Source: a virus (taxonomy: Duplodnaviria > Caudoviricetes). From it: a stretch of DNA of 64,000 bases. The stretch lies in IMG/VR virus record IMGVR_UViG_3300018063_000004, positions 369 to 64,368 of that record, one strand, 5' to 3'. A program made the translations under genes and the position numbers. The notes beneath the pieces were generated by a model, which was given only the letters and a program-made list of their open reading frames with translations, had not been told where the DNA came from and ran no database searches. Of the stretch, positions 806 to 64,000 are shown piece by piece. Numbering within the stretch: position 1 is the stretch's first letter; each line of letters opens with the position of its first letter.

Positions 806-1951
806 TTAATGCTCGCCGAGGAACATCGCCGCATTCCCGAGCCCTGGATCATAGGCGACGCCCTCGATCGTCACGATCTTCGGTCCGCCGGTTGTCGGAA
901 TAGACGGAATCTCGAACTCGACGGACGGCAGGACGCACCCAACCATGAGCCCGTTCGCGTTACCCACGAGCAACCGCAGCACGGCTTTCGTGAAGGTCTC
1001 GGCTTTCGCGATCAGGTTCACGTCCTCGAGGTAGAACTGCACCGAGACGGTCACGTTGCGAAAATCCGTATGGTGAATGATGCCCGAGGCGACCGAGCTG
1101 CCGAGTTCGCGGTTCCGCAGCTCGCTGTTGTTCTCCATCGTGATTTCGGCGGAGATGACGAGAAATGCCGTGCCGTCGACGAACAGATTGCCCACGAGAC
1201 CACTCGCCGGTGTGCCGACGGTCGTGAAGCCAGCCGGCGGATTGAAGCCGGTCCGGAACTTGTCCTTTGACGGGCCCGAGACCGCGATGCCGACTTCGCG
1301 CGAGCCGTCGAAGGTGAGCTGGATTCGATTGACGATCGCGCCGTTGACCGCTTCCTTGAAGGCGCCGGCCGTATGGAATTTGAAGACCCGGAGGCTGCCA
1401 GGATGCAAGCTGGCCAGCTTGTAATTGACGCCAGAGACCGCGGCGCCAGGCACATCAGGCGCCACGCTGAGCGCATCGAACGTGATCGCCAGGCCCGCGA
1501 CTGTTTTGACGCTCGTGATCTCACGCCGCGCGCCGGCGGCCACGGTGAACACGATCGTATCGCCGACAGCCAGCGTGCCCGCGCTGATCAACGTGGCCGA
1601 CGTGGTCGTCGGCGCCGGCGCCGCGTTCACGGTCGTGGCGAGGTTGACAATCGTCCGCGTGCCCATCCCGTTCTTGAGGAACTTCGACAGATAGGACTGC
1701 GTGCCGAGTGTCCCACTCGGTTCCCAGAACGCCGTGCTCAGATCCCAATTGGAATCTGGCCGCCGCGGCAAACTCTGCGAGCGATCCGGCGTGCCGCGCT
1801 TCTCCGGCGATGGTTCTCGATTGTTCTTTTTATCCAGGTCTAGCTCCTGGTGTCGGAAGCCATCGGTCGCCGACGGATCCACGAGGGTCTCGCCGTAGGC
1901 CCCCTCTTCGACAACATAGGCTTGCTCAAGTAAGGTCGATTCCACGGTCAT
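806..1951 (-). CDS. Major tail tube protein
   Basis: 381 aa beta-rich protein; position between the tail terminator region and the chaperone; no sheath gene seen. Confidence 0.8.
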   Translation of the reverse strand: MTVESTLLEQAYVVEEGAYGETLVDPSATDGFRHQELDLDKKNNREPSPEKRGTPDRSQSLPRRPDSNWDLSTAFWEPSGTLGTQSYLSKFLKNGMGTRTIVNLATTVNAAPAPTTTSATLISAGTLAVGDTIVFTVAAGARREITSVKTVAGLAITFDALSVAPDVPGAAVSGVNYKLASLHPGSLRVFKFHTAGAFKEAVNGAIVNRIQLTFDGSREVGIAVSGPSKDKFRTGFNPPAGFTTVGTPASGLVGNLFVDGTAFLVISAEITMENNSELRNRELGSSVASGIIHHTDFRNVTVSVQFYLEDVNLIAKAETFTKAVLRLLVGNANGLMVGCVLPSVEFEIPSIPTTGGPKIVTIEGVAYDPGLGNAAMFLGEH

Positions 1952-1995
1952 GTGCTGTTCCTCAAGAAAACAGATTTGGAGTTACCCTTGCGGGC

Positions 1996-2715
1996 ATGAA
2001 GGTGAACCTGCCCAAGATCGGCGCTCGGTTTGGACGTTGGACAGTCCTCGGACGGCCTCGGGTCTGGAGCTACCGGTGGTCTGTAAATTGTCGGTGTCGA
2101 TGCGGAACGCGCCGCCGCGTGAAGGTCCAGAACCTGACGCGCGGCCTGAGCCGATCCTGCGGCTGCCTGAGCCGAGAGATTCAGCGCCGTCTGAAGACGC
2201 GTTATCGAGTGCCGCGGAAGGGCACGCAGTTTGGCCGACTCGTCATTACAGGCGGCGCGATTCGTGACGCCGGTGATCGGAAGATCCGGGTTCCGTGTCG
2301 TTGCGCCTGCGGCAAGAAGTGCGTCAAGGATATCTACTCGCTGCGCTCTGGCGCGATTCGATCGTGTGGTTGCCGACGAGGCAACATCACACACGGTGAA
2401 TCGAGACGAACCGTCGAATACCGAGCCTGGCGCGGCATGCTGACGAGGTGCTACAACCCAAAAACGCAGTTCTGGCGCTACTACGGCGGCCGACGGCCGC
2501 CAGTTCGCGTCTGTGCCCGCTGGCGCAAGAGCTACGAGGCCTTCCTGGCCGACGTGGGTCGTCGGCCGAGCCGCCGGCACTCCCTCGACCGCAAAGACAA
2601 CGACGGCCATTACGAACCCGGCAATGTGCGCTGGCGAACGGCTACACAGCAGGCCCAGAACCGCCGCCCCATGCGCCGATCGAGAACTGGTCGAACGCTG
2701 CATCGTGCTCCCTAA
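1996..2715 (+). CDS. HNH homing endonuclease inserted antisense in the tail operon
   Basis: Two FGRW/L..CxCxCG..SCGC repeats, THG, MLTRC, YGGR, SLDRKDNDGHYEPGNVRW; TACCCT -10-like box 7 nt before ATG (possibly leaderless). Confidence 0.9.
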   Translation: MKVNLPKIGARFGRWTVLGRPRVWSYRWSVNCRCRCGTRRRVKVQNLTRGLSRSCGCLSREIQRRLKTRYRVPRKGTQFGRLVITGGAIRDAGDRKIRVPCRCACGKKCVKDIYSLRSGAIRSCGCRRGNITHGESRRTVEYRAWRGMLTRCYNPKTQFWRYYGGRRPPVRVCARWRKSYEAFLADVGRRPSRRHSLDRKDNDGHYEPGNVRWRTATQQAQNRRPMRRSRTGRTLHRAP

Positions 2716-2790
2716 AACAAAGAGCGCCCGGGCGGCAATCTCAATTGAGATCGCCGAACCGGGCGCTCGGGTCCTCCGTCACGCCCATGC
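2713..2790 (-). promoter_or_regulatory. Attenuator copy 1: CGGAGGACCCG hairpin overlapping an intrinsic terminator
   Basis: GGGCGT-gaCGGAGGACCCGa-GCGCCC competes with GAGCGCCCGG..CCGGGCGCTC-TTTGTTTT. Confidence 0.8.
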
Positions 2791-5765: not shown

Positions 5766-5800
5766 GAAAGTTCGCCGGCCGCATCTTCGGGCGGCCGGCG
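5766..5800 (-). terminator. Hairpin after capsid gene
   Basis: CGCCGGCCGC..GCGGCCGGCG then AACTTTCT. Confidence 0.45.
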
Positions 5801-5843: not shown

Positions 5844-8531
5844 TTACGGGACGATCGCGCCGGCGAATGGCCGGAAGTCCATGATCGCGCCGCCGTAGAT
5901 TTGGCGGATCTTATACGTGAGCTGATCGTTCGAGAACATCGACCCCTGGCTCGGCAAATCCTGCACGAACAACTCCGGGGTTTCTTGGCCGTCCAGGAAG
6001 CCGATCTCGAGCATCGGCGCTTGATCGATCGAGGCCGAGACCCAATAGTTGTTCACGTCCGACCAATATTCAACTACGATCGTCGTGAGATTCAGCTTCT
6101 TGACGAAGTTCGGATCATTGTTGTTTGAGCCGAGCACGCGATCCGACGTGGTGAGCTGAAACGCCAGCTCCTCGAGTTCCGATGGCACGATCAGATAGCG
6201 CGCCGCCAGGCCGATGCGCTTCGCGTTCGACATATCGGCTTGCTGTTTGATTCGCAGCCGGAGCGTCGAGACGTTCGCGCCCGAGAGCGCCGTGGTCACG
6301 ATGTTGTTCCCGTGGCCGGCCGCGGCCAGCGCCACGCCGTCATAGATGAGCGCGTTGTTGTTCAGGAAATCCCACGCGAACTCATGCAGCGTTTGCGCGG
6401 CCGCACGCGCGAGCTTGTTCGGGACTCGGCGGACGGCGCCGACATCGTCGTTCTTGATCATCTCAAGCGTGATCTGCTCGGTCCCGCCGCGCTTCGCCGG
6501 CGAGTAGGTCGCCTCTTCGTCCGTCGGGCTCGTCATGGACGGATACGGCCCGCCCTGCGTGACGATCGCGAGGTTCCCGTAGCCGCCGAACCGCATACGC
6601 CGCACGGTCCGGAAGTCGGAGAGTGGGACGACCTCGGCGATGGTGCCGCGCCAATTCGCCAGGCCGCTATCCGCGTAGTCCTTGAGCATCCGGCGCGTGA
6701 TGCTATCGCCGAGGATCTGATCGAAGCTCGACGTCGTGAGCGATTCCGTCAGTCTGATTTCCGACAAGCGCCGCAGAACAGCTTCGCTGATCTTGCCGTT
6801 GACCTTTGTATCGCCCGTGATGTCAACGTAGATTTCCTTGAAGCTCTGGAGCGGCTTCATCGGATCGAAGAAGTTGGCGAGCCGTTCCCGGACTTTGGCC
6901 GTCCCGTCCGTCACGATTTGCACGCGCGGGAGGCCGACGTGTGGCATGACGAGGTTCGCTTCGCGCAGCGCGCCCACGTCCTCGACCGCTTCCTTGATCG
7001 CGAGTGTGACCTCGTCCTCGGTCGGAAGCTGGCCTTTGCCGATTCGCTCCGTGAACTTTTTCCGCAGACGTGTTTTGAACACGTCGGGCAGCGCGCACTC
7101 GAGCAGCGATCGCTCGAGCATCATGCCGGCGAAGTTCCGAGCCCCGGACTGATTGCTCGTCTCGAGTGCCGTGATGCGCTCGAGCAGCGCGGTGCGATCG
7201 GCCGCCTCGGTGATCGTCGCGGTTGCGCCGGCAGCCGGCACGGCGGCCGCGGCAGGCACAACAGCAACGACAGGAACGACAGGTCGAGCGGCGAGCGCCT
7301 CAGTGAGCAGACGAGTCGCCGTGGCCTCGTCGCACCCTTCCGGCACGGTCACGCCGGCCTTTTTCAACGACTCGATCAAATGCTGCAACATGCGAACGTC
7401 CTCCTGAAGCTGTGGATTGGCCGCTTCGGATGCCACGAGACGGAGCACGCGCCCGCCCGCGGACGGATTCAGAACCCAATCGACCGATTCGACTTTGCGG
7501 ATGGCGTTGACGTCGTAGGCCGCGCCGTCGGCGAGCTGCACGACCTGGCTCTCGGCCCGCACGTCATGTGAGAGCCCGAAAAAGTCGGGATGGCCTTCCT
7601 GGTAGGCGTCGAGTAATTCCTCCCGGAAGTGTTTCTTCGTGACAACGGCGGTGCCCGCCAGCGCCAGAAGGCTGGCGCCGCCATCGGCTTCGGTGGTGCT
7701 CGAGAGCACGACCGGCCGGATGTTTTTCGCGAAGCCCATCGCTTCAGCGCCCGAGCGGCCGAACGGCCCGGTCTCGAGCTTGTGATCGAGAAACATCCGC
7801 GCCTTGTCGTAGAGCGGCGCGGCTTCGGCCAGGACCTTCCGGTTGTAGCGGTTGCGGTTCTTGCTCATGCCTTCTTGAATGAGCAGCACGTCCCACAACT
7901 TGCCCGTTGGCGCGCTCCCGGCGGCCTCCGCCACGGGCCCGAGGACCTCGGCCTGGATCCGGATCAGGTTGCCGGCCGCGGTGGTGATGATGGACTCGAG
8001 AAAAGCGCCCTCGCGCACGGGCGCGTATTTTTGAACGACTTCGATCGGTTCGCCCTTGAGTTCAACCGTGCCATCGATCGTCCAGGTGTAATCGATCCGC
8101 CAGAAGCCTGGCTTCCCGACGCCGATGCTTTCCTTCCGGAAGATGACGTAGTCGTCATAGGTCGCGACGGGCCAGACATAGCCCATGCGACCGTTGTCTT
8201 TGGGCAGGAAGCGTTGCCGAAGAGCATCCGACACGCGCGACAGGCGTTCGTCCAGCGAGAGCCCGTTCTTCGCCTCAGCCGTGCGTTGAAGGATCGCTTC
8301 GAGGATCCAACTATTCACACTCGACTCCTTGTTGCGTCGGATGAGGTCACCGATTGGATTGCCAGCACGATCGAGGACCTGCACAGAAACCATGTCGGCG
8401 GCGATGATTTCTTCGGCTTCCGCCTTCGCTTTGATCGCGCCGCAGATCCGACGCGCGCGCTCGGCCGATTTGCCCTGACTGACGTGATCGGCCACGCACG
8501 CATCAAAATCCGTGTAACCGGCAAACGGCAT
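5844..8531 (-). CDS. Prohead protease-scaffold-major capsid polyprotein (Mu gpT-like capsid)
   Basis: Protease-like region (MFLDH, FGLSHD, SVDWVLNPSAGG), helical scaffold, capsid motifs (SDFR, ITLEMIKNDD, YLIVP, GFLDG..PE); likely ATG 8531 just after the terminator U-tract. Confidence 0.9.
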   Translation of the reverse strand: MPFAGYTDFDACVADHVSQGKSAERARRICGAIKAKAEAEEIIAADMVSVQVLDRAGNPIGDLIRRNKESSVNSWILEAILQRTAEAKNGLSLDERLSRVSDALRQRFLPKDNGRMGYVWPVATYDDYVIFRKESIGVGKPGFWRIDYTWTIDGTVELKGEPIEVVQKYAPVREGAFLESIITTAAGNLIRIQAEVLGPVAEAAGSAPTGKLWDVLLIQEGMSKNRNRYNRKVLAEAAPLYDKARMFLDHKLETGPFGRSGAEAMGFAKNIRPVVLSSTTEADGGASLLALAGTAVVTKKHFREELLDAYQEGHPDFFGLSHDVRAESQVVQLADGAAYDVNAIRKVESVDWVLNPSAGGRVLRLVASEAANPQLQEDVRMLQHLIESLKKAGVTVPEGCDEATATRLLTEALAARPVVPVVAVVPAAAAVPAAGATATITEAADRTALLERITALETSNQSGARNFAGMMLERSLLECALPDVFKTRLRKKFTERIGKGQLPTEDEVTLAIKEAVEDVGALREANLVMPHVGLPRVQIVTDGTAKVRERLANFFDPMKPLQSFKEIYVDITGDTKVNGKISEAVLRRLSEIRLTESLTTSSFDQILGDSITRRMLKDYADSGLANWRGTIAEVVPLSDFRTVRRMRFGGYGNLAIVTQGGPYPSMTSPTDEEATYSPAKRGGTEQITLEMIKNDDVGAVRRVPNKLARAAAQTLHEFAWDFLNNNALIYDGVALAAAGHGNNIVTTALSGANVSTLRLRIKQQADMSNAKRIGLAARYLIVPSELEELAFQLTTSDRVLGSNNNDPNFVKKLNLTTIVVEYWSDVNNYWVSASIDQAPMLEIGFLDGQETPELFVQDLPSQGSMFSNDQLTYKIRQIYGGAIMDFRPFAGAIVP

Positions 8532-8610
8532 GGCCAAAAAAAAGAGCGCCCGAAGGGCGAGCTGTGAAGCTCGAGTCCTTCGGGCGCTCGGGTCCTCCGC
8601 CGCGCCCGGC
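8532..8610 (-). promoter_or_regulatory. Attenuator copy 2 upstream of capsid gene
   Basis: CGGGCGC-ggCGGAGGACCCGa-GCGCCCG versus terminator GAGCGCCCGAAGG..CCTTCGGGCGCTC-T8. Confidence 0.85.
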
Positions 8611-8629
8611 GGGATCACGATCGATCGAC

Positions 8630-8830
8630 TTACGCGGCCGGCAGCGTGTAGCGCCCGGTCCGCATCATCTCAACCGCTTGCGGATCCTCCACGGGAAGGC
8701 CGTCGGCCTCCCACGTTTCCTCTCGCTTGACGATCCCGATCTGGCCCTTGCGGAACTGAATATGGATCGTCCCGTAGAAGTCCCGCCGGACGCATTCGAG
8801 TAAGAACTGCACAAGACGCGCGAAATGCAC
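8630..8830 (-). CDS. Small DUF2292/YezD-like protein, candidate RNA-binding regulator
   Basis: 66 aa; FYGTIHIQFRKGQIGIVKREET resembles the YG.V.I..QDG.V.QIE..EK pattern; stop lies about 20 nt before attenuator copy 2. Confidence 0.55.
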   Translation of the reverse strand: MHFARLVQFLLECVRRDFYGTIHIQFRKGQIGIVKREETWEADGLPVEDPQAVEMMRTGRYTLPAA

Positions 8831-8833
8831 CCG

Positions 8834-9244
8834 CTAGACTCCGGCCAAAAAATGCACCCGCGAACACTGACACCCGAAGCCAGGATCTGGTCCGCCAGCG
8901 TCCTCTCTGAACAAAATCTCGCCGCACGCACCCGGGATGTCCTCGGTCATCAACACCTTGACTGTGACCCCAGTCGCCGCGTCGACGACCTCCCGCGGCC
9001 GCTGCCGGCGTTGCTTGCACGCCAGAATGAGCGCGAGGTCTTGTCGATCGAGTTCTTCGGCCAGGCCGACGAACATCCGACGGACTTTCTTGACGAGCAC
9101 AAGGCGCCGGCGGCCGTCCCCATCCCGACCTCCTTCGGCCGCCTTGCCGTCCTCGGTGCCGCCCTCTGGGAGAGCAGCCAGGTGCGCCGGCACAATGAGA
9201 CCGCTGGCACGTTCGGCGAGTTGTCCCGAGAGCGACGCGTTCAT
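8834..9244 (-). CDS. Hypothetical protein with possible Zn site
   Basis: Coupled ORF; C..C..CxC residues. Confidence 0.55.
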   Translation of the reverse strand: MNASLSGQLAERASGLIVPAHLAALPEGGTEDGKAAEGGRDGDGRRRLVLVKKVRRMFVGLAEELDRQDLALILACKQRRQRPREVVDAATGVTVKVLMTEDIPGACGEILFREDAGGPDPGFGCQCSRVHFLAGV

Positions 9245-9753
9245 GTCACACGAGGATCGCGAATGAGATACGCGCGCAACCGTTGCCGGGCCCTCGAGAG
9301 CGCCCGTCGGTCGGTTGCGTCATGTGCTACATAGACCGTGCCGAGCCCCAAACTGTGACAGATCAACGTTTTGTCATGGGATTTCAACCGGTTCAGCGCG
9401 TCCGTGAAGGCCTCGTGCCGACGTGCGTTTCGGAGATGTTCGTCTGGATCGACCACGGCCTCATGGGGATTCGTGAAGGCCGCCAGGCGGTCGCGCGTGC
9501 GCTCAAATCGGGCGCGGTCCGCGTGCGTATCTCGAGCGACAGACACCGTCACGCGGTAGATCCAGGTGCGAATGGCGCCCGGATCCCGAAGGCCGTTCAT
9601 GCTCTGACAGAGCCGGAGGCCGACCTCGGCGACGACGTCGGGCGCTTCATCGTGCCCAACCTCCTGCACGGCAACGGCTTCCACGAAGCCGCGGTGCTGC
9701 GCGAACACGTCGCCGATGCGTTTGCGATCGGCTTCATTCAATCGCACGCGCAT
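9241..9753 (-). CDS. ECF-type sigma-70 factor
   Basis: Region 2 (APDVVAEV..L, TWIYRVTVSVARD) and region 4 end (LSRARQRLR). Confidence 0.75.
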   Translation of the reverse strand: MRVRLNEADRKRIGDVFAQHRGFVEAVAVQEVGHDEAPDVVAEVGLRLCQSMNGLRDPGAIRTWIYRVTVSVARDTHADRARFERTRDRLAAFTNPHEAVVDPDEHLRNARRHEAFTDALNRLKSHDKTLICHSLGLGTVYVAHDATDRRALSRARQRLRAYLIRDPRVT

Positions 9754-9822
9754 GATGATATCTGATCTCTTCGGCCGGAACCCGCACGCGGTCAGCGAGT
9801 TCCGGCCTGTTCGAATCCCGTT

Positions 9823-10568: not shown

Positions 10569-10805
10569 ATGGCCGTGACGATCCAGAATGGCAACGATCA
10601 GGCGACGTTCGATAACAGCCGATGGACCTCGGCCGATCCCCGGCTCGAGGCGTTCCTGAACAGCATCATTCCGATCGATCGGATCTCGCCCTCGGTCGGC
10701 CGGCCTGATGTGTTTGTCGCCAGGGACGCGATCGCGCGTCTCGGCGATGGCGCAAAGATCGTCACGGTCAGCACAGAGACACTCCCTCCGGACGCCATAC
10801 CCTAA
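10569..10805 (+). CDS. Small convergent protein, candidate immunity partner of the MuF peptidase
   Basis: 78 aa globular-looking ORF filling the gap; stop overlaps MuF stop; TATCCT -10-like box upstream. Confidence 0.6.
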   Translation: MAVTIQNGNDQATFDNSRWTSADPRLEAFLNSIIPIDRISPSVGRPDVFVARDAIARLGDGAKIVTVSTETLPPDAIP

Positions 10806-12757
10806 CGGAACTTCCCGCGCAGTAGCTCGAAGATGAAATCGAAATACTCCGGATCCGCTTTGGCGAGCGCCGCCGGATCCGCAAAGAAATATTCGATGCC
10901 CATCGAGACGATCTCCGTAGCCTGCAGACCGTAGTCCTTGCCCATATAGGGATCGAGGAACTTATCCTTCCGCGCGCGCTCGTGCGGTTCATAGCCGTAG
11001 CCTGGCTTGAGCGTCGACAACGGCGTGAGCGCCTCGCCCTTCGTGCGCGCCTCGAGGAACCGGAACGCCGCGGCCTTCACGTCCGGCGCGTTGAACTCGA
11101 GGATATGCCCGATCTCATGCGCGATCGTTCTGGCGGTTTCGTTCATGTTCAGATTGATCGAATTGTTTTGCTGCCTCGCGAATGCCCTCGAGACGAACGT
11201 GCCGGACCCATCCCGCGCGCGATCGACGACGATTGAGCTGATCGTGCCGTGGCCAACGAGCTTTCCGACTTCCTCAAGCGTTTGACGGATCCGCTTTGTG
11301 ACTTCAGCGCCGTTAATTGGCCGGAACCGGATCGTTCGTTTATTGAATGCCTGATCAGTGCCAAACTCGGCGCCGGGCGCGATGTGAAATTCGATCGTCC
11401 GCCGGTCTGTAACCGGAACGGCCAGGCGCCGACGAAGCGCCCTGGTTTCTGCGTCAAGGTTCGCCTTGAGCTGTCGCTGGAGCCGGTTCATTTCTCCGAG
11501 GAATCGATCCACGTCCTCAGCCGCGGCGATATAGCGTGGATCGGCACGAATCACTTCATCGGCGAGCTTCTCGAGGCGCGTGTTGGCCGCCAGCCATTCG
11601 TGTTGCGCGCGTAGATGACTGTCCGCCAGGTTGCGGCGTTGCTGATCAAACCGATCGGCGACCTTCGTGAGCGAGTGACGCACGTCGGCCGCTGACCGCG
11701 GCGGCCGCGGTGGCCGCGGCGCCGGCCTCGGCACGACGGGCGGTTCCCCCACCACAGCGGGCGACGGTTCTGGGGTGACACGGCTCCTCGAGGTCGAGAA
11801 CGCCCGGAGTTCGTCCAGGTTGAAATCGACGAAGGCTCCACAGCGGCACATAATTGTTGCCCCCGCGGCCAGCCGGCCCGCCGGCGTCGCGTCTGGATCT
11901 ATTGGAAAACGCAAGAGCGCCACACCGAGCAGCTTCGGCGGTTTGCCTGGCGCTTCGCTGTGAACATTGATCCGGAACCGATCACGCACCGGGATCCCGT
12001 GCCCGCGCGCGTAGGTCTGCGCGGCCTCCAGATGCCCCTGACGCACCCGCGCATCTCGAGCGGAACGCCAGCCCTTGCGGAGAAAGGGGAACTGATTCGC
12101 CAGGCCGAGCAAGCGATCGAAGGTGGATTCGTTCAGCACGCGACCAAGTTCCGTTCGCACCATTCGCTCGGCCTTGAATTCGGCCGCATCGAAGCCCGCG
12201 TCCCCGATGTTCGCGGCGAGCTTCCGGAGTTCATCGAAACTGGCCTCGCCAGCGATCGCCGCACGCCGCACGCCCTGGACGAGCTGATTCCGGAACCGTT
12301 GCATGGGTTCGGAGAGCAGATCGGCCGTCAAGTCAAACGCGCGTGTGGCCAGCGCGCGATCGAGCTGCGGCGCCCGGCTGAGTGCCACGCGCGCTGCCCG
12401 AAGCGGTTCATCCGCGCTCGAAGCTCCGAGGTCCTGTGCCTGGCCGAAGGCAGCCTTGGTGCCCGCGAGGAGATCGGCTTGCGCTTCGGCAATCAAGCGA
12501 TCGATATCAAGGATCAGACTCGAGGCCGTGAAGCGTCGGAACTGGGAGGCCCCGGCGGAGGCGAGCACGCCCTGCAGCTCGCGCTTGAGTTGCTGAAGGC
12601 GAGCCAGTAGTCGCTGGACGACGTCGCGCTCGAGCCCGAGCGCGGACCGTTGGACCTCACGTCCAGCCGAGGCGCCGGCTGCCGCCCGCCTGGCCGGCGA
12701 GTTCGGATCAGAGGCCTCATAGGCCGGCGCGAGCGCCAGGTTGCCCCGTGTCAACAT
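10802..12757 (-). CDS. MuF/gpF minor head protein with C-terminal zincin metallopeptidase
   Basis: AERMVRTE, KGWRSARDARVR..H, IMCRC; Pro-rich linker; AHEIGH and ATEIVSMG. Confidence 0.85.
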   Translation of the reverse strand: MLTRGNLALAPAYEASDPNSPARRAAAGASAGREVQRSALGLERDVVQRLLARLQQLKRELQGVLASAGASQFRRFTASSLILDIDRLIAEAQADLLAGTKAAFGQAQDLGASSADEPLRAARVALSRAPQLDRALATRAFDLTADLLSEPMQRFRNQLVQGVRRAAIAGEASFDELRKLAANIGDAGFDAAEFKAERMVRTELGRVLNESTFDRLLGLANQFPFLRKGWRSARDARVRQGHLEAAQTYARGHGIPVRDRFRINVHSEAPGKPPKLLGVALLRFPIDPDATPAGRLAAGATIMCRCGAFVDFNLDELRAFSTSRSRVTPEPSPAVVGEPPVVPRPAPRPPRPPRSAADVRHSLTKVADRFDQQRRNLADSHLRAQHEWLAANTRLEKLADEVIRADPRYIAAAEDVDRFLGEMNRLQRQLKANLDAETRALRRRLAVPVTDRRTIEFHIAPGAEFGTDQAFNKRTIRFRPINGAEVTKRIRQTLEEVGKLVGHGTISSIVVDRARDGSGTFVSRAFARQQNNSINLNMNETARTIAHEIGHILEFNAPDVKAAAFRFLEARTKGEALTPLSTLKPGYGYEPHERARKDKFLDPYMGKDYGLQATEIVSMGIEYFFADPAALAKADPEYFDFIFELLRGKFR

Positions 12758-15920: not shown

Positions 15921-17723
15921 CTACAACTCCTTGACATTCTCGGAGCCAATAATCTGGCCGTTGCTATCCCTCACGACCTTTCTCGGCGGCGACGTGAGAT
16001 CGACATTCACGCGAGCGCCCTCCACGGTGACGGCCGCCGGCGCGACGTTGACGGTAATCGGCGCCGCCTGTGCCGACCGCCGGTCAGCGAGACGGCCCCC
16101 GAGGTCCTCAAGCTGCCGACTGATGGTCTCGAGCCTGCCGTGGCCGTTCCCGCCATGGGGTTCCAGCCGCTCCGCCTCCTCCCGCTGCGCGTCCTCATCC
16201 GGATCCGGCCGGCCGAAGGGGGGATTCGTCGGCCGCCCAGGCCGAGCGGCCGCGGCCGCGGCCATGGCTGCTTGCATCTCGTCCGCGCGCCCCTGGCGTT
16301 CTGCGGCGTCCGCGTCCGCCTCGTCCATGACGTCTTGCGCTTTGAAATCGAAGCCCGATCCGAGATGTTTCGTGAGCGCCAGCGTGATGATGGACGCGAC
16401 ACGCCGGCTGATCGTCTTGTTGTTCATGGCCGTATCCATCGCGGCGACGATCTGCGAGAGTGCGCTGCCCACGCGCGAAATGTCCTTCGCCGCAATCTCC
16501 GGCATGTTCACGCTGAATACGTCGGTCGTCAGATGGCGGAACAAGATCGGATTCAACCCGCGCTGTTGCTCGATCCCGAAGCGGAGGATCTGAGTCAGAA
16601 ACCCGCCGAACTCCTTCTGCCGCGCCGCCGGCGTTTTCATGGCCACGTCGTTCTGTCCTTCGATGGTTGCGCGGTTGCTGTCCTGCCAGCCGAACCAGGC
16701 GATCGGCATGCCGAGCGAGCCGGCAATATGGATGGTCAAGAGGCGCGCGGTTTCTGATCGGTCCGTCGCGTTCAAGGCGGGCGAGAGTGCGGTGAGCTTC
16801 TCGTGCTGATTGCGGCCGAACACCGAGCCGGCTGATGGCGTGCCGATCTCGGCCATGCGCTCGGCGATCTGCACTTTCGTGGCGTCCTTGATCTCGAGAT
16901 CCCACACGAAGGCGGAGAGCAACCGGACGCGCTCCACCTCCGCAAACATATATTGATCGAAGAGATCCAGCCAATCGGCCAACGGGAGGTAGTCCGAGCG
17001 CCCGCGGCTCGAGTTCGGCAGATTGTTGATCGCGAAGTAAAAACACTCGCCCTCGAGGCGGCCGGTCAGCGGATTCTCCTGGATGATCGTGATCCGCCGC
17101 GACTCGGCCTCATGCGGTTGTCGTTTGAGCCGGACGAACTCTGGGACGAGGACGTTATCCGGGCGCGTCTCGACTTCCTCAATCTGATAGGGATCGATGA
17201 ACCCGATCGTCGGCACACCCGTCACGTCGTTGACCGCCACGGGCAGGACCAGTTCGCCGTTCAACATCAGCGCATTCGAGAGCTTGCGCGCGCGTTCGCC
17301 GAGCCGATTGATGGGATGGTTCCAGACCTTGCCGACCGCCTCCGCGATCTTCGGGTCTTGCGCGTCAAAGCTGAGGCCTTCGCCCACGACCAGGTCGGTC
17401 TGAGCGGTGATCAGGCGGCGCGCGAAGGGATTCGTTTCGTAGAGAAACCAGGCGATTTCCAGCATCCGATCTTGTTGCATGGGCTGGAGATCGCGCTTTT
17501 TGAACTTCGTCCCGCTCGAGAGCCGGCGGAATTGATAGTCGTCGCTATCGATCATGCCGGCGATGGGTGAGAGCGTGAGCGCCTCGGCGCGCCTGGCGGC
17601 CGCGGCCTCTGACGCCTCCGACCGCCGGAGCGGCAGATCGAGGAACGGTTCCTCCACGGTGGCCACCGCGGTGACGAAGATGGGCGGATGCATAAACGCG
17701 CGGACGCGATCGCGAAAGCTCAT
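15921..17723 (-). CDS. Portal protein
   Basis: Downstream of terminase; NPFARR, NGE, RGRSD motifs; 600 aa. Confidence 0.88.
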   Translation of the reverse strand: MSFRDRVRAFMHPPIFVTAVATVEEPFLDLPLRRSEASEAAAARRAEALTLSPIAGMIDSDDYQFRRLSSGTKFKKRDLQPMQQDRMLEIAWFLYETNPFARRLITAQTDLVVGEGLSFDAQDPKIAEAVGKVWNHPINRLGERARKLSNALMLNGELVLPVAVNDVTGVPTIGFIDPYQIEEVETRPDNVLVPEFVRLKRQPHEAESRRITIIQENPLTGRLEGECFYFAINNLPNSSRGRSDYLPLADWLDLFDQYMFAEVERVRLLSAFVWDLEIKDATKVQIAERMAEIGTPSAGSVFGRNQHEKLTALSPALNATDRSETARLLTIHIAGSLGMPIAWFGWQDSNRATIEGQNDVAMKTPAARQKEFGGFLTQILRFGIEQQRGLNPILFRHLTTDVFSVNMPEIAAKDISRVGSALSQIVAAMDTAMNNKTISRRVASIITLALTKHLGSGFDFKAQDVMDEADADAAERQGRADEMQAAMAAAAAARPGRPTNPPFGRPDPDEDAQREEAERLEPHGGNGHGRLETISRQLEDLGGRLADRRSAQAAPITVNVAPAAVTVEGARVNVDLTSPPRKVVRDSNGQIIGSENVKEL

Positions 17724-18083: not shown

Positions 18084-19658
18084 CTATCGCCGGCGATTAC
18101 CGAAGATGAATCCGGACAGCCGTCGATAGTTCTGATCCGCACGTGGCGCCGGCGCCGGCGGCGCAAACGATCCGACGGCCAGCGTGGCGCCCGTCGATGC
18201 GTGATACGCAATCACAACGGCGTGCGCGCGATCTGGTGAGGCCTTCAGCCCCTTCGGCATATCGGCCGCGGCAATACTCGGATCATCCGGATCCTTGATC
18301 GCGAGCTGGCCCTTCGGCATGTGCCGCGTCCGGAGGTTCGAGAGCTGGCCCTTCAGGCGATCGTCGTCGCAGAGCCCGAACGTCCCGACCTCGCCGCGCT
18401 CCCGAGCCCGGAAGTTGTCCTCGAGCGCCATGCGGAACTTCCAGCAGAGCCAGGCTTTGTTATTCTGGAAATGTTCCTTCCGATCGTCGGTATCGAGCGC
18501 GGACTTCGATCCAAAAATCACGGGCATCGTCGGGATCTGGTGCAGTTTCATGAGCATATCGGTCACGCCGCCGCCGAGGCCTGTGTCATCCACGCCGATC
18601 GTTTGCGCGCCGAGCGCCTCGCCCTCATACAAATCGACGAGCCGCTGCGTGGTCGTGACCAGGTCCGTCTTCGTCCACGTTTTGATCCAATCGATCCGCG
18701 TGCTCGAGCCGAAGGCCGTGGCCGTTTCGTCCACACCGAAGCGCGCCACGTCGCACCCGAGGACCTTGCGCGAGGCGTGCTTGATCGCCGGCTCGAGCGT
18801 CTCGTGCTCGCACTCGCCCTCGAGCTTGCCGCACGTCGCGCAGCGTTGCGCCTGGCCGGCCAGCTCGGCGGCGAGGATCCAATCGAGCCGGATCAGAATG
18901 TCATCGCCTTCGTTCGGGAACTCGCCGAGGACTTTTGCCTGGTAGATCGGCGACGTGACGCCCCATTCCTCGGCTTTTTGCGCCAGCCACTTCCGATCGA
19001 CGCGCGGCGCATCCTCGCCGTTGATATGAATCTGCCGAAAGAACTTCGCGATGCGGCCGAAATGTGATTCATAGAACTTGCCCTGGCGGGATCCCGGCGT
19101 CGACGTATAGAGCCGCTGGCCGCCGGTGGTGAGCGCGCCATCGATGGCGTCATAGATCGGATTCGACACGCCCTTCGCTTCGTCCACAATGAACAACACG
19201 AACGGCGCGTGGAAGCCTTCCATGTTTTGCGGCTTGTTCGACGCGATCCCGATCGCGTGCCAATCGGCTTCATGGCCGCGCACGCTCATTTTCGTTTTCG
19301 AGAGCACGAGATGCTCCTTGAGGCGAAAGCCTTGATGCCATTTCGCGATCTCGGCCCACAGAATGTCTTTGACCTGGCGGAGCGTCGGCGCCGTCGTCGG
19401 CACTTTCGAAAACGGCCGCGTCAGGAGATACCAATAGACAATGAAGGCATCGACGGTCGTTTTCCCCACGCCGTGTCCGCTCCGGACCGTGACGTCGTCG
19501 CCCGCGGCGATCCCCTCCATGATCGCCGCCTGATAGTCCTCGAGTTCGACCGGTTGGCCGTTCTTGTCGCGGAAGAGATCGTGGACAAACGCCCGCGGAT
19601 TCGCGTGATAGCTCTTCCACTTGGCGACCGCAAAGTCGCGGACCTCCGCCGTCAACAT
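18084..19658 (-). CDS. terL: Terminase large subunit
   Basis: SGHGVGKTT Walker A, IVDEA Walker B, STP motif, GCDVARFGVDET, SPDRA. Confidence 0.95.
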   Translation of the reverse strand: MLTAEVRDFAVAKWKSYHANPRAFVHDLFRDKNGQPVELEDYQAAIMEGIAAGDDVTVRSGHGVGKTTVDAFIVYWYLLTRPFSKVPTTAPTLRQVKDILWAEIAKWHQGFRLKEHLVLSKTKMSVRGHEADWHAIGIASNKPQNMEGFHAPFVLFIVDEAKGVSNPIYDAIDGALTTGGQRLYTSTPGSRQGKFYESHFGRIAKFFRQIHINGEDAPRVDRKWLAQKAEEWGVTSPIYQAKVLGEFPNEGDDILIRLDWILAAELAGQAQRCATCGKLEGECEHETLEPAIKHASRKVLGCDVARFGVDETATAFGSSTRIDWIKTWTKTDLVTTTQRLVDLYEGEALGAQTIGVDDTGLGGGVTDMLMKLHQIPTMPVIFGSKSALDTDDRKEHFQNNKAWLCWKFRMALEDNFRARERGEVGTFGLCDDDRLKGQLSNLRTRHMPKGQLAIKDPDDPSIAAADMPKGLKASPDRAHAVVIAYHASTGATLAVGSFAPPAPAPRADQNYRRLSGFIFGNRRR

Positions 19659-41465: not shown

Positions 41466-41500
41466 GCGCGCGGAGGACCCGCGCCCGTATGGGCGTTTTT
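41466..41500 (+). promoter_or_regulatory. Attenuator-like copy at the integrase start
   Basis: GCGCGG-AGGAC-CCGCGC hairpin overlapping GCGCCC-GTAT-GGGCGT-TTTT. Confidence 0.6.
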
Positions 41501-52545: not shown

Positions 52546-52590
52546 GGGATCCTCCTCCCAATGCCCGCGTCGGGTCCTCCGTGCGCGGCG
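52546..52590 (-). promoter_or_regulatory. CGGAGGACCCG hairpin copy without U-tract
   Basis: CCGCG-caCGGAGGACCCGa-CGCGG followed by TGGGA-GGAGGA-TCCCA hairpin over RBS and start. Confidence 0.7.
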
Positions 52591-59609: not shown

Positions 59610-62600
59610 TCAGCGGACTCCCAGTGCCTTCTGTGATCGCGTCAGGATTTGATCCCGGTTCGTTTCGAGCGCCTCGAGATAAATCGGAATGCCGCGCCGG
59701 AGGAACCAGCTTTCGAAATTGTCTACGTCGATCGCCTGGACGTTGAAGTTGACGACGGACGGTCCGCCGGCGCCGCCGCCTTGCTGACCGCCGATCCCGA
59801 GCGAGCTGAAGATGTCCTTGAAGAACCGTTGCGGTCCGCCCACTTCGGCCTCGCCGCCTTCGCCGAACCAGGTCAACGTCGGTCTGTTCGCAAAGATCCC
59901 GTGTTGCGCGCCTGGAGGCGGCTCACCGTTCCCATTCGGCGGAGGCGTGAGATCAGGCAAGGGAGGGATATCCCAATTGATCTCCACGTCGATCGGTGGA
60001 ATGTCGATATTCTCAAAGGCGTCAGCGATTTGCCCGGCAGATTGCAACGCGTCGTTCGCTAGGAGATCAAACTGTTTACCGAACGGGCCCACGATCCCGC
60101 CACGTCGGATCCATTCTTGAATTGTCCTAGAAATCGTCTCGGTGAGTTTCTCGCCGCCGGCCTCGCCAGCTTCCTTGAACGTCACCTCGCCAAGTTCAGT
60201 AACGTGTGTGCCCGTGTCCTCGATCGCTAAACTGATCTGCTCGAACCCTGTGAGAATAGGATCGAGCCCGGCCGGCGCGGACTCGCCCACGGCGGCAATC
60301 TGTTGTTCGAGATCCATCAGACTCTTATTGAGCAGCGCGATTTGTGCCAGCGTGCGTGCCTCGATCACGCCCATTTCGCCGGGCAACGTGATGATCCCGC
60401 CCTTGCCGGATCCGGTGTGACGTTGAAGAACGCGGGCCTGTTCTGGCGCTTCATTGGCAAGGCTCTCTATGAGTTTTTGCCGTTCAGCAGCCACGCCGGC
60501 CAATTGCGTCGAGAGTTCATCGAGCCGCGCGGTGCGCGCGGTATCGGCCTCCAATTCCACGTGCGCCGATTGGTCAACGATCGCGGCCATGTCGATCTGC
60601 TTCTGTTTGGCCGCGTCGATCGCCGCGGCCAGCGGTGCAAAGGCGGCGGCGACGGCCTCCGGCCCTTGTTTCGAGGCCGCCCAAAACTGTTGAACATCTG
60701 CCAACGCTTGCTGTTCGGATTTGCCCGTGGCGAGATAGGCATCCCGCACGGCAATCACATCCTTCTTCCACTGTTCGTTCCCGGCTTCGGCGCGCTGTTG
60801 CGCTGTGAGCGTGGAGTCGATCTGTTCTCGGATTTCATCCACGGCGAGGCGGCCGGCTTTTTCTTTTTTGCCGGCGCCGAACAATCCGCCGATCACGCCA
60901 GACAGGCCGCCGATCAGTGCGCCGACCGCCGTGCCGATGCCTGGCACGATTGAGCCGATCAACGCTCCTGTGGCCGCCCCGCTCAATCCGCCGCCAACGG
61001 TGCCCGCCGTCTTGCCAAACTTCGAGCCCAGAAAGGTGCCGAGACCGAAACCAGCGCCGCCGGCGGCCGCGCCGCCAAGGAGTCCTGAGACCGCAATGCC
61101 GCCGAGTGATCCAAGCCCGCCGGCGGCGCCGCCTCCGCCGGCCCCGGTCACGGTCGCCGCGCCAGGCAAGGCTCCCGTGCCAAGCGTCGGAATGGCCAAG
61201 CCCGCGCCGCCCCCGCCGCCGAGCCCCGGGATCCCCCCTTTCAGGATGTCACCGAGGCCTCCGGTGATCCCGGCTTTGCCGCCCGTGATCGCGCCGAGGA
61301 TCCGGTTCAGGCCGAACTTGATGAAATCGTTTGCGATGTCGTTGAAGATGTTCAACAGCGAGGCCTTGATCGATTTCCAGATATCGACGAAGCCTTCCTG
61401 GAAGCCCTTCGCGCCAATCAGCATTTGCGCAAAACTGCCCTCGATGGCGGTTTCGAGATTCTTGAGGCTCGACACGACACCAGGCACGACTTGCGTTTGC
61501 CAAAAACTTGGGATCTCGCCGTTCGCCGCGTTGATCGCATCCTTCGCTTTCTTGAAGGCCTCTTTGATCTGCGCGGGTGTCGCCTCGCCAGACGCGCGGA
61601 TGATCTCGTAATTCCGGACGGCCGCGTCGGCCGTGTCCTGCAATTCCTTCCGCGTCGAAATGCCGAAGGCTTTGAAGGCGCCTGAGAGCTGCGCCGTCTG
61701 TAACTCCGCTTTCATCATTTCCGGCGTGATCATTTGAATCCCGGCGAACACGCTCGGATCGAAGGCGCGCGTCGCGTTGCGCTCCCACTCGGCGATGTCA
61801 TCGATCATCGGGTTCATCGTGCGCCGCGCGGTTTCGAGTGCCGCGGTCGCCAGATCGACGCCGACGCCGGAGAGCTTCGCCGCCTTCGCGAGCGCCTCGT
61901 ATTCCGGCCAGAGCGCCCGCACGACGAGTGTCACGTCCGCGCCTTCGATCCGGGCCCGTTCGACGAGCGTGTTCAGTTCCTTCAGCCTGGCCTGCACGCC
62001 AGGCAGCGTGACGATGCCGAGCTGTTCGAGGGCGTCGCGTTGCTTCTGAATTTCCGCCGCGTATTCCTCGGCCGATTTCTTGCCGGCCTTTTGCGTTTCG
62101 CCGAGTTCCTTCGATTTCTTCTCGAGGAACGTCGTTGCCTCGGCCGAGAGGTTCAGGCTTTTCGGTAGTTCGATCCCCGCTTCCTTGTATTCATTGAACT
62201 TCTGGATGAGGTCTGGTAGCGCGAGGCCGGTCGCGCCAATCTCTCGCGCGACGCGGTTTTGCGTTTCGGCCAGGGTTGTATTCACCAGCGCTCGGTTCTG
62301 CGCGACGGTGAACATAATTTTTTCGTCCTCGAGCGCAATCCGCCGGCGGATGGCTTCATCGGCGGAAATCTTGCCGGACCGCTCAAGAATGTTGATCTCG
62401 GCGGCCTTTTGCAGAATCGTGCGGCCCGCCTCGTTGTTATATTTCTGCGTCTCGAGGGTGACAAACGCGATCGCGTCCGCATACTCGATATGTTTGCCAG
62501 CGCCGAGCGAGATCGCGCGATTGATCACGTCCTGGACGGCGCCAGCCGTTTCGGCGGCCACACGCGCATCCGCCTGTGCCTGTTTCCAGGACACCAACGC

Positions 62601-63773
62601 CACGGCGCCGGCGATCGCGACGGCGCTCACGCCAAGAAAGGCCAGGCGGAGCGCGCCCAGACTGGTGATGAAGCCTGCCGAGGAAGTCGCCGCGGTCCGG
62701 AAATTCGCCCCCAGACCGACGAGTGATCCCGTGAATAATTGGATGACGCTGCCCACATTGAGCAACGCGAGCGCCTTCATGTGCGTGGCCACACCGCCGA
62801 TCACGCCGCCCAATCCAGTGAGGCTCGGAATCCCCAGCGCGGCCGCGGCCCGCATGGCGACCAGCGGCCCAACCAGCGCGCCGACGGCAATCCCGGCCGG
62901 CACGAGCACGGGCGCCAATGCGCCGACGCCTTGCACAAATGGGGTGAGGACCGTGAGCACGGCGCCGAGCACGGGCTGCAGGCCTTTCCCGATCTGTTGC
63001 TGTGCGATCGTGACTTGACTGCTGAATTGGGCTTGCGCGCCGGCGGCCGTTTTCAACAAGCGTTCGGTATCGCCGAGCTGTGGATTCGTTTCCTTGAGGA
63101 TCCCGTTGAACAGCGCCTGCCGCACGCCGGCGTCGGTCGTCGCGCGCGAGAGGTCCTGTGCGGAGAAGCCGGCCTCCGTCAAAATGATCGACAGGTTTTT
63201 CGTGACGCCGGCGTTGTCCACCAGGATCGAATTCCCGTTCTTGATCCCTTCTGTGGCGCTCACAATGGCCTGGCCGAAGTCGAGCGAGCCCTGCCGACCG
63301 AACGCCGCCGAATCCTTAAACCGATCCATCAGCACGATCGCTTGATCGAGCCCGAAGCCCGCGGCGAGGAGATTCTTGAGGCCGGAGGCCGCTTCCCCGA
63401 CGTTGAGCAAGCCATCCGAGGCCAGGCGTTTGGCCGCGTCCTGTGCCAGACCAGCGTCCTGGCTGAAGGCCCTGGCGACGCTCGACAGGCCGATCAGGCC
63501 CGCGTCCAGGCGGTTCGCTTCCACGATCGAGGACTTGAAGGCGCCGACGAGGCCGCGCCCGACCCGTTCGGCGAGCACACCGAGGGCCACGCCGGCGGCC
63601 GTGGACGCGACGCCAGTTCCTCGGATGCCTTTTTCCGTATCGGCAAGTTTCGGCGCCGCCTTCCCGGCCTCGCTGCCGACTTTGCCGAGCCCGCCAGAGA
63701 ACAGATCAATGCTCTGCTGGCCAGCGGCCCTCATGTTGAGCAGAACTTGGACTTCGGTTTGCGAAACAGCCAT
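59610..63773 (-). CDS. Tape measure protein
   Basis: 1387 aa helical A/G-rich; LVDNAGVTKN; Gly-rich hydrophobic segments. Confidence 0.95.
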   Translation of the reverse strand: MAVSQTEVQVLLNMRAAGQQSIDLFSGGLGKVGSEAGKAAPKLADTEKGIRGTGVASTAAGVALGVLAERVGRGLVGAFKSSIVEANRLDAGLIGLSSVARAFSQDAGLAQDAAKRLASDGLLNVGEAASGLKNLLAAGFGLDQAIVLMDRFKDSAAFGRQGSLDFGQAIVSATEGIKNGNSILVDNAGVTKNLSIILTEAGFSAQDLSRATTDAGVRQALFNGILKETNPQLGDTERLLKTAAGAQAQFSSQVTIAQQQIGKGLQPVLGAVLTVLTPFVQGVGALAPVLVPAGIAVGALVGPLVAMRAAAALGIPSLTGLGGVIGGVATHMKALALLNVGSVIQLFTGSLVGLGANFRTAATSSAGFITSLGALRLAFLGVSAVAIAGAVALVSWKQAQADARVAAETAGAVQDVINRAISLGAGKHIEYADAIAFVTLETQKYNNEAGRTILQKAAEINILERSGKISADEAIRRRIALEDEKIMFTVAQNRALVNTTLAETQNRVAREIGATGLALPDLIQKFNEYKEAGIELPKSLNLSAEATTFLEKKSKELGETQKAGKKSAEEYAAEIQKQRDALEQLGIVTLPGVQARLKELNTLVERARIEGADVTLVVRALWPEYEALAKAAKLSGVGVDLATAALETARRTMNPMIDDIAEWERNATRAFDPSVFAGIQMITPEMMKAELQTAQLSGAFKAFGISTRKELQDTADAAVRNYEIIRASGEATPAQIKEAFKKAKDAINAANGEIPSFWQTQVVPGVVSSLKNLETAIEGSFAQMLIGAKGFQEGFVDIWKSIKASLLNIFNDIANDFIKFGLNRILGAITGGKAGITGGLGDILKGGIPGLGGGGGAGLAIPTLGTGALPGAATVTGAGGGGAAGGLGSLGGIAVSGLLGGAAAGGAGFGLGTFLGSKFGKTAGTVGGGLSGAATGALIGSIVPGIGTAVGALIGGLSGVIGGLFGAGKKEKAGRLAVDEIREQIDSTLTAQQRAEAGNEQWKKDVIAVRDAYLATGKSEQQALADVQQFWAASKQGPEAVAAAFAPLAAAIDAAKQKQIDMAAIVDQSAHVELEADTARTARLDELSTQLAGVAAERQKLIESLANEAPEQARVLQRHTGSGKGGIITLPGEMGVIEARTLAQIALLNKSLMDLEQQIAAVGESAPAGLDPILTGFEQISLAIEDTGTHVTELGEVTFKEAGEAGGEKLTETISRTIQEWIRRGGIVGPFGKQFDLLANDALQSAGQIADAFENIDIPPIDVEINWDIPPLPDLTPPPNGNGEPPPGAQHGIFANRPTLTWFGEGGEAEVGGPQRFFKDIFSSLGIGGQQGGGAGGPSVVNFNVQAIDVDNFESWFLRRGIPIYLEALETNRDQILTRSQKALGVR

Positions 63774-63866
63774 AAAAAAAGCGCCCGGCGCGAGTTACCG
63801 ATTGGCAACAGATTGTTGCCACTGGTAAGTTCACGCCGGGCGCTCGGGTCCTCCGTGACGCCGGCG
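63774..63866 (-). promoter_or_regulatory. Attenuator copy upstream of tape measure
   Basis: GGCGT-caCGGAGGACCCGa-GCGCC versus long terminator AGCGCCCGGCG..CGCCGGGCGCT plus T-run, directly followed by ATG. Confidence 0.85.
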
Positions 63867-63904
63867 AATAACTTCCTACGTGAGAAGCGCCGCTTACGAC
63901 TTCA

Positions 63905-64000
63905 TCATCGTTTCTTGCCTGGCATTCGCACCAGCGGGATACTCGACAGCAAGGTCGCGATCATCGTGAGCTGGCCGGCCTGATCTCGTTCCCGATCGAT
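63905..64000 (-). CDS. Probable C-terminus of the frameshifted chaperone (partial)
   Basis: Open frame IDRERDQAGQLTMIATLLSSIPLVRMPGKKR*; expected position before tape measure; frame not certain. Confidence 0.45.
   Translation of the reverse strand: MDRERDQAGQLTMIATLLSSIPLVRMPGKKR

Follow-up and report, generated by a model that had tools for sequence, protein, structure and literature searches.

Introduction

In bacterial sugar operons controlled by BglG, SacY and LicT, the ribonucleic antiterminator (RAT) is a leader hairpin which shares bases with the 5' arm of a more stable terminator. The boxB loops of phage antitermination begin with G, adopt a GNRA-like fold and are preceded by boxA, and the N protein is arginine-rich and acts processively together with Nus factors. 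The targets of ANTAR proteins consist of two tandem hexaloop hairpins. Late-gene control in tailed phages is known chiefly from a few models, namely lambda Q and N, gp55/gp33 of T4 and activators such as Mu C and P2 Ogr. Here we describe a hairpin element that overlaps intrinsic terminators in leaders of structural genes of a tailed virus (Duplodnaviria; Caudoviricetes), together with an adjacent gene for a protein of 66 amino acids (aa). The analysed stretch of 64,000 nt, hereafter called the window, represents nearly the whole of the 64,368-base virus record IMGVR_UViG_3300018063_000004.

The element is probably a terminator/antiterminator switch, and a factor encoded by the phage is the somewhat likelier kind of reader. 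Taken as a whole, the arrangement is tentatively interpreted, with just under even confidence, as an RNA attenuator, i.e. a factor-dependent antiterminator switch of the phage that would most likely be bound and read by the adjacent 66-aa DUF2292-like protein.

Results

An 11-mer within a hairpin precedes five genes

The 11-mer CGGAGGACCCG occurs five times in the window, compared with 0.08 copies expected, and none of 100 shuffled sequences reached this number. As claimed in a preliminary description of the window, all five exact copies are located in intergenic leaders, on the sense strand of the next gene. When up to one mismatch was allowed, eight matches were found (3.23 expected). Two of the three one-mismatch sites were read (10009 and 53582; the third is at 49107), and both lie inside open reading frames (ORFs) without hairpin or terminator.

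Ungapped alignment of the four minus-strand copies revealed two unpaired bases 5' and an A 3' of the 11-mer, closed by a lower stem of 5-7 pairs. The hairpin (28 nt) is composed of a GC-rich lower stem, an internal loop of 2 nt and 1 nt, a CGG/CCG upper stem and an AGGAC pentaloop. The five copies are listed below (bit scores refer to the covariance model described later; dG is the folding free energy in kcal/mol).

8581-8608, minus strand: putative antiterminator hairpin of the capsid leader; 7-bp lower stem; 11-mer at 8589-8599; 38.5 bits; dG -20.1 when folded alone
2760-2787, minus strand: putative antiterminator hairpin of the tail leader; 11-mer at 2768-2778; G-U pairs at both ends of the lower stem; 40.4 bits; dG -16.7
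63837-63864, minus strand: putative antiterminator hairpin of the tape-measure leader; 11-mer at 63845-63855; 39.8 bits; dG -18.4
52565-52588, minus strand: glycosidase-side copy, 5' of the ribosome-binding site of a 545-aa gene (ATG 52545); 11-mer at 52571-52581; 5-bp lower stem CCGCG/CGCGG; no terminator; 35.2 bits
41468-41499, plus strand: integrase-leader copy; 11-mer at 41471-41481; continuous 6-bp stem with AGGAC loop at 41468-41484; 29.2 bits

The lower stem had been said to change its sequence while keeping its pairing. It is indeed closed in all four minus-strand copies, but three of them are nearly identical (GGGCGY/GCGCCC), and within this genome only the glycosidase copy truly covaries. 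The 11-mer is identical in the glycosidase and integrase copies despite different flanks and lower stems.

In the integrase leader, the motif hairpin contains the only Shine-Dalgarno (SD)-like sequence (GGAGGA) before the int ATG (41489), and it overlaps a short hairpin with a T-run that includes this ATG. The int start codon lies in the loop of the short hairpin, which competes with the motif hairpin holding the ribosome-binding site. The same reader could control int in the opposite sense.

The hairpin overlaps compact terminators in three structural-gene leaders

A terminator finder returned eleven candidates on the minus strand, eight of which are foldings of 64-110 nt within ORFs. Only three are compact (46, 47 and 63 nt; dG -36.0, -39.4 and -44.5 kcal/mol; 7-8 T residues), and these are found exactly in the capsid, tail and tape-measure leaders. 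All three share a strand with the motif hairpin, whose lower-stem 3' arm doubles as the base of the terminator 5' arm.

8536-8589, minus strand: intrinsic terminator of the capsid leader; hairpin 8544-8589, 8 T at 8536-8543; dG -36.0; z -4.30; followed by the capsid ATG
2714-2768, minus strand: terminator of the tail leader; hairpin 2722-2768 plus T-run; dG -39.4; z -3.56; followed by an AGGGAG ribosome-binding site and ATG 2703
63774-63843, minus strand: terminator of the tape-measure leader; hairpin 63781-63843, 7 T; dG -44.5; z -5.59; ATG 63773 immediately after

Measured on the whole leaders, these z-scores show folding far better than that of shuffled sequences; the glycosidase and integrase leaders had z-scores of +0.6 and +0.1. 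The leader at 2714-2787 had been assigned to a tail tube gene; hairpin and terminator are present there, but the next ORF (1948-2703) has no family match.

The overlap between terminator base and motif hairpin amounts to 5-7 nt in six out of six terminator-bearing copies, counting those of the relatives L003 and L004 described below. Minimum-energy folds of the full leaders contain the terminator, and forcing a leader to retain the first hairpin costs 1.4-15.8 kcal/mol. The first hairpin by itself has a free energy of -12.4 to -20.5 kcal/mol. For the three window leaders, forced folds are 6.5-15.8 kcal/mol worse than the terminator fold, and the motif hairpin alone reaches -16.7 to -20.1 kcal/mol. 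The two structures are therefore mutually exclusive, with the terminator as the ground state. Mutual exclusion had been proposed for the three window leaders, and the shared arm and the forced folds bear it out both there and in two further lineages. The GC-rich hairpin and subsequent U-run of an intrinsic terminator were found in the three window leaders as well as in L003 and L004, and so was the hallmark of an attenuator, an alternative upstream hairpin that shares bases with the 5' arm of the terminator.

Two further phage lineages keep the design with loops of their own

Directly upstream of the capsid leader lies a set of small genes, and the capsid gene is the first one behind the switch.

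9241-9753, minus strand: gene for a predicted sigma factor of the extracytoplasmic function (ECF) type; Sigma70_r2 match at 3.1e-7; co-occurs with the small protein and the element
8834-9244, minus strand: gene for a 136-aa protein, between the sigma and 66-aa genes; no family match; present in the L003 phage, absent in L004
8630-8830, minus strand: gene for the 66-aa protein; predicted helix, beta-hairpin, helix; plausibly a remote DUF2292 relative; candidate reader of the hairpin
5844-8531, minus strand: capsid gene; C-terminal Phage_capsid_4 domain on a long fusion protein; ATG 8531-8529

The 66-aa gene stops 21 nt short of the lower stem, and some 30 nt separate it from the 11-mer; a distance of about 20 nt to the capsid copy had been given previously.

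Relatives were collected by a capsid homology search, from which 80 loci in viral contigs were kept; with 74 metagenome and 60 genome loci, the total was 214. L002 and L003 are two contigs of one phage whose capsid protein is 64% identical to that of the window. The module order in L003 is sigma factor, 140-aa gene and small-protein homologue, followed by a capsid leader with the full element. Lower stem, CGG/CCG upper stem and overlapping terminator are kept in this leader, and the loop is AAGAA. A second AAGAA hairpin with overlapping terminator precedes the homologue of the 381-aa tail gene of the window; in this leader the outer pair of the lower stem is altered, with corresponding changes in all three strands involved (5' arm, shared arm and terminator 3' arm). 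No copy of the element was found before the tape-measure gene of the L003 phage.

In L004, whose capsid protein is 40% identical to that of the window, a sigma-like ORF restricted to region 2 is followed directly by a gene for a 78-aa small-protein homologue. Three bases past this gene lies a hairpin with an unrelated lower stem (CACGC/GCGTG), the CGG/CCG top and the loop AACCA, which overlaps a terminator just before the capsid gene. The three lineages therefore each have their own loop (AGGAC, AAGAA, AACCA), the sequence of which is fixed within a genome. The distance between the end of the small gene and the hairpin is 3-30 nt in all three. Conservation of the upstream stem in relatives, on which the initial proposal had been made to depend, is hence seen in two further lineages, with compensatory changes in the stem.

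The L003 contig contains two additional copies outside such a context. One is a third copy of its own 11-mer (2248-2258; coding, in the 140-aa gene, with no lower stem noted); the other is a copy of the window 11-mer (6510-6520) which forms the ribosome-binding site of a GTG-started gene. These copies imply that the bare 11-mer is not diagnostic without its context. The only match of an exact 18-mer in the viral contigs, in L001, is located within a coding region without hairpin context and was dismissed as a chance match.

Covariation supports an RNA structure

Eight copies (five from the window, two from L003 and one from L004) were used for a model of the element. In the alignment of these related rows, which was fitted to the structure, 90% of 80 paired cells hold a pair, compared with 29-41% when the partner is slid. 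Changes on both sides were present in six of ten pairs, and the covariation score was reached by none of 500 shuffles. The three CGG/CCG pairs are invariant in all eight copies and three lineages, whereas the lower stem varies freely. In three copies, the upper end of the lower stem contains G-U pairs, which argues for a structure of the sense-strand RNA and not for a DNA cruciform.

The covariance model gave 29-40 bits for the eight copies, which as training sequences match by construction, and at most 18.7 bits for anything else in the window, L003, L004 and L087. Rfam returned no match at the gathering score; at E-values up to 1, the capsid leader matched only ctRNA_pGA1 (25.2 bits against a gathering score of 45; E 0.91). 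An arrangement of this kind was also not described in the titles and abstracts of the literature on phage antitermination, pentaloops, DUF2292/YezD and phage sigma factors, in agreement with the earlier statement that no described system was recognised.

Two other signals in the leaders were considered and rejected: (i) a loop pseudoknot in cis, as the complement of the loop is absent within 130 nt in seven of the eight copies; (ii) coupling to upstream translation, as the distance between stop codon and hairpin ranges from 3 to about 31 nt and is not conserved. Two DNA runs carrying the same phage showed no sequence variation at the leaders.

The element co-occurs with the small protein and the sigma factor

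Among the 214 capsid loci, the small-protein profile matched only the window, the L002/L003 contigs and L004. The co-occurrence of motif and small-protein family that had been predicted is thus observed, both being confined, within this set of loci, to the same three lineages. The profile of the sigma-like protein had an identical distribution. Small protein, sigma factor and element were all absent from the 74 metagenome and 60 genome loci.

Both strands of 2.28 Mb were further searched for the composite element, defined as CGG-N5-CCG with five or more lower-stem pairs and an overlapping terminator. With a compact, strong terminator it was found only in the lineages of the window, L002/L003 and L004. 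In seven other rows (five different sequences), the fold downstream was 60-96 nt long and had a dG of -15 to -37 kcal/mol, an energy range that overlaps that of the true copies; these rows came from loci without the small protein. A shape-based DNA pattern matched at least 118 stretches in viral contigs, and among the matches listed only the two copies on the L003 contig were accompanied by a terminator and both proteins. Searches for additional relatives of the small protein with several family queries gave only L003/L002 or nothing in viral contigs, and one of these queries gave none in metagenome and genome contigs.

Weak matches of the small-protein profile were present in five of 401 Planctomycetota genomes. 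Four of these loci (L344-L347, from genomes G271, G007, G047 and G074) carry short host genes of about 50 aa which resemble DUF2292. By eye, a strong terminator-like hairpin with a T-run was seen 25-150 nt downstream of all four genes and before the next gene on the same strand; folding confirmed this hairpin at L344, L345 and L346. L346 and L347 have a conserved sequence in common in the spacer downstream of the gene. No CGG-N5-CCG hairpin was found at L344-L347.

Properties of the small protein and the sigma factor

Apart from Sigma70_r2, no Pfam family was detected in the products of the 66-aa, 136-aa and sigma-like genes. The likeness of the 66-aa protein to DUF2292 that had been noticed earlier is not apparent from the protein itself, which has no Pfam match even at an E-value of 10, but it emerges from its relatives: 13 of 35 aligned family members match PF10055 (DUF2292) weakly (E below 1, best 1.2e-4). 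The 66-aa protein is thus plausibly a remote DUF2292 relative. An exhaustive profile search found 48 family representatives at E-values of 0.001 or less, ten of them at 1e-10 or less. Family members have an N-terminal helix, a strand-turn-strand motif (FYG..I.F..G.I) and an LPV.D motif. The nearest clusters in a protein atlas are mostly viral, which is taken as a lead only.

The confident AlphaFold model of the 66-aa protein (predicted local distance difference test score 89.5) comprises a helix, a beta-hairpin and a helix. A Foldseek search of the PDB with this model gave no match at an E-value of 0.001 or less, VIA-align reached a Z of at most 2.6, and the small-protein profile matched nothing meaningful among PDB sequences.

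The sigma-like protein matches Sigma70_r2 above the cut-off, and ECF models of NCBIfam align with residues 8-167, albeit below their curated cut-offs. Sigma-70 regions 2 and 4, which characterise ECF sigma factors, are both present in the window protein, and judging from its sequence it is an ECF-type sigma factor. The ORF of L004 (115 aa) consists of region 2 only and lacks region 4.

Gene order in the window

By eye, bases 1-122 of the record repeat positions 63879-64000 of the window, i.e. about 120 bases. Due to this terminal repeat the genome is either circular or terminally redundant, and when the record ends are joined, the tape-measure leader continues from the tail genes at the low end of the window. 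Nearly all structural genes are on the minus strand, and neck and tail genes follow downstream of the capsid gene.

18084-19658, minus strand: terminase gene
15921-17723, minus strand: portal gene
10802-12757, minus strand: gene for a MuF-like minor head protein
1948-2703, minus strand: 251-aa ORF directly behind the tail leader; no family match; ATG 2703
806-1951, minus strand: conserved 381-aa tail gene, following the 251-aa ORF; homologue in L003 57% identical
59610-63773, minus strand: tape-measure gene; ATG at 63773

The third-position GC content of the 251-aa ORF is below 0.72, and the ORF has no counterpart at the L003 tail leader, which is followed directly by the 381-aa homologue; the ORF may have been inserted. 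At 8822-8861, two direct copies of a sequence of about 12 nt, AATGCACCCGC, lie 27 nt apart across the junction where the 136-aa gene ends and the 66-aa gene begins. Upstream of the sigma gene, a gap of 70 nt, which has no equivalent in the L003 phage, contains a 9-bp inverted repeat without T-run (GGCCGGAAC ... GTTCCGGCC; 9773-9807, minus strand). Just past the capsid gene lies a 9-bp GC hairpin with a poor T-run (5771-5800, minus strand), which is kept in L003 (5933-6001) and has the look of an ordinary weak terminator behind a strongly expressed gene.

Discussion

A proposed switch and its reader

During transcription of a leader, the 28-nt hairpin would fold first and sequester the base of the terminator. 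Unaided, it would be displaced by the stronger terminator, and transcription would halt before the structural gene. If a phage-encoded factor recognised the upper stem and loop and held the first hairpin shut, the terminator base could not form and RNA polymerase would read on. The first transcripts would allow synthesis of sigma factor and small protein and then stop; as this protein accumulates, the genes for capsid, tail and tape measure would be opened terminator by terminator, which would provide a built-in delay. The sigma factor probably initiates late transcription, with the small protein acting subsequently on the terminators. The copies without terminator, in front of the 545-aa gene and the integrase gene, may be extra binding sites that act on translation or stability.

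An invariant CGG/CCG top, combined with genome-specific loops that are identical across differing flanks, points to a genome-specific reader of the hairpin top. The small protein is the best candidate because its gene lies immediately before the first switch in each of the three lineages, because L004 encodes it in full length but only a truncated sigma-like ORF, and because it is found nowhere else among the capsid relatives. It had been regarded as the only phage-encoded candidate; its co-occurrence with the element agrees with this view, but the ECF-type sigma gene at 9241-9753, which had been missed, co-occurs equally. A more far-reaching and speculative proposal, which we consider possible though doubtful, is a new class of late-gene regulator: a DUF2292-like protein of about 65 aa would bind a pentaloop hairpin specific to the phage and successively open the terminators of structural genes, acting downstream of an ECF sigma factor of the phage; the specificity of the protein would co-evolve with the loop as that of N does with boxB.

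Several points weigh against the small protein as reader of an antiterminator switch: (i) the sigma factor co-occurs with the element exactly as the small protein does, and association cannot separate the two; (ii) structure searches revealed no recognisable RNA-binding fold in the small protein; (iii) the window protein is near neutral (pI 6.7; 5.5-9.7 in the family); (iv) there are only three independent lineages; (v) the pair counts come from eight related rows aligned to fit the structure; (vi) a 19-nt identical block is common to the three terminator-bearing window copies and could be maintained by recombination between them; (vii) the glycosidase and integrase copies have no canonical terminator; (viii) the first hairpin is already stable by itself (up to -20 kcal/mol) and the two states of the L003 tail leader are only 1.4 kcal/mol apart, so that some read-through may need no factor.

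Alternative explanations

The strongest competitor, which we rate as rather unlikely, is the same RNA switch with a different reader: a host factor, the sigma-like protein or a further phage protein encoded outside the fragments retrieved. In that case the small protein would serve another function, for example as sigma partner, as anti-sigma factor or in head assembly. The first two points above speak in favour of a different reader, and with contigs of only 20 kb (L003) and 6.7 kb (L004), further genes in common would escape notice. A host factor, however, leaves unexplained why loops differ between phages and are fixed within each. Sigma factors are not known to bind RNA hairpins, and L004 has retained a complete small protein but only region 2 (115 aa) of the sigma-like ORF. 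The position of the small gene next to the first switch in all three lineages also argues for the small protein.

We consider it improbable that the elements are factor-independent attenuators or insulators, i.e. hairpins that set a fixed read-through or protect processed mRNAs, with 11-mers kept identical by recombination. Such a function would be compatible with the 19-nt block, with a first hairpin that is stable alone (-12 to -20 kcal/mol) and forms first, and with the nearly iso-energetic states of the L003 tail leader. It does not account for the exact 11-mer in the glycosidase and integrase copies, whose flanks differ, nor for CGG/CCG pairs that are invariant in eight of eight copies while the lower stem varies. 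Further, if a terminator permanently kept the capsid and tail genes transcribed at a lower level than the minor genes upstream of them, this would presumably contradict the stoichiometry needed.

A nested promoter is quite unlikely. Here, the motif would be a -35 element (GGAAC-like) for the phage ECF sigma factor; transcripts arriving from upstream would stop, whereas those starting in the terminator loop would lack its 5' arm and escape termination. An ECF-type sigma factor is encoded next door and co-occurs with the element; GGAAC (L004), GAAC (L003) and GGAC (window) resemble the ECF -35 consensus; and the start codons in the capsid and tape-measure leaders follow the T-runs with little or no ribosome-binding site. 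Yet no common -10-like element was seen by eye 15-18 nt downstream of the motif in three window and two L003 copies, and the covarying 5' lower arm and the G-U pairs remain unexplained by a promoter. A start about 30 nt downstream of the motif would drop the strong ribosome-binding site of the glycosidase gene, and in the integrase leader such a start would lie within the gene itself. Finally, region 4, the part of a sigma factor that reads -35 elements, is missing from the sigma-like ORF of L004.

Least probable of all is translational control by CsrA, a host protein binding GGA loops which had been suggested as a reader, or by the ribosome through an SD-like GGAGGA in the hairpin: the window loop AGGAC with its stem does give GGAGGA, the only SD-like sequence before the int ATG, and the window 11-mer serves as a ribosome-binding site in the L003 phage, but the loops AAGAA and AACCA of the relatives have neither an internal GGA nor SD likeness, and the motif of the three main copies is located 60-80 nt upstream of the start codon, before the terminator.

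Comparison with known antitermination systems

As in the BglG/SacY/LicT systems, a leader hairpin shares bases of the terminator 5' arm and the terminator is more stable; in our model, moreover, a small protein domain would hold the hairpin shut, terminator by terminator. In contrast to BglG and LicT, the small protein has no CAT or PRD domain (no Pfam match at an E-value of 10), the phage hairpin, topped by 3 bp and a pentaloop, is shorter, and it is the structural operons that carry it, with no sugar or phosphotransfer control apparent.

With lambda N and boxB, the element has in common a candidate reader encoded by the phage, a short GC stem, a 5-nt loop specific to the phage type and its repetition within the genome. 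However, A is the first base of all three loops (AGGAC, AAGAA, AACCA), a boxA-like element was not seen upstream of the hairpins, and the small protein shows no evident N-terminal arginine-rich peptide. While lambda N acts processively from promoter-near sites, each terminator in this phage has its own overlapping hairpin. ANTAR systems (AmiR, NasR, EutV) likewise use a protein-stabilised antiterminator structure that overlaps a terminator, but the element is a single pentaloop hairpin, and no ANTAR domain was found in the neighbouring genes scanned. According to titles and abstracts, Xp10 p7 and P23-45 gp39 are also small phage proteins that let the polymerase pass intrinsic terminators; they act on the polymerase without an RNA site, whereas a covarying hairpin is present at each terminator in this case, and structure searches with the 66-aa model returned neither of them.

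The small protein resembles DUF2292/YezD (PF10055) in size and in its central strand-turn-strand motif (FYG..I.....G.I), although the window protein itself does not reach the Pfam model. Titles and abstracts mention the term DUF2292/YezD in passing and describe no function for it. If the proposal is correct, it would provide the first function for this uncharacterised superfamily, as RNA-hairpin-binding antiterminators, and it offers a testable function for a widespread family of small proteins without known role. The three loop variants and their cognate proteins would, in that case, be orthogonal RNA-protein antitermination parts that permit a swap of specificity. Late control by a switch distributed over the terminators, each with its own hairpin and all with a phage-specific loop, would also differ from the solutions of lambda, T4, Mu and P2. 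Factor-dependent antitermination by an alternative hairpin is a known principle; new are the RNA motif, the candidate protein family and the setting in phage structural genes, and together they suggest a previously undescribed way of switching on these genes.

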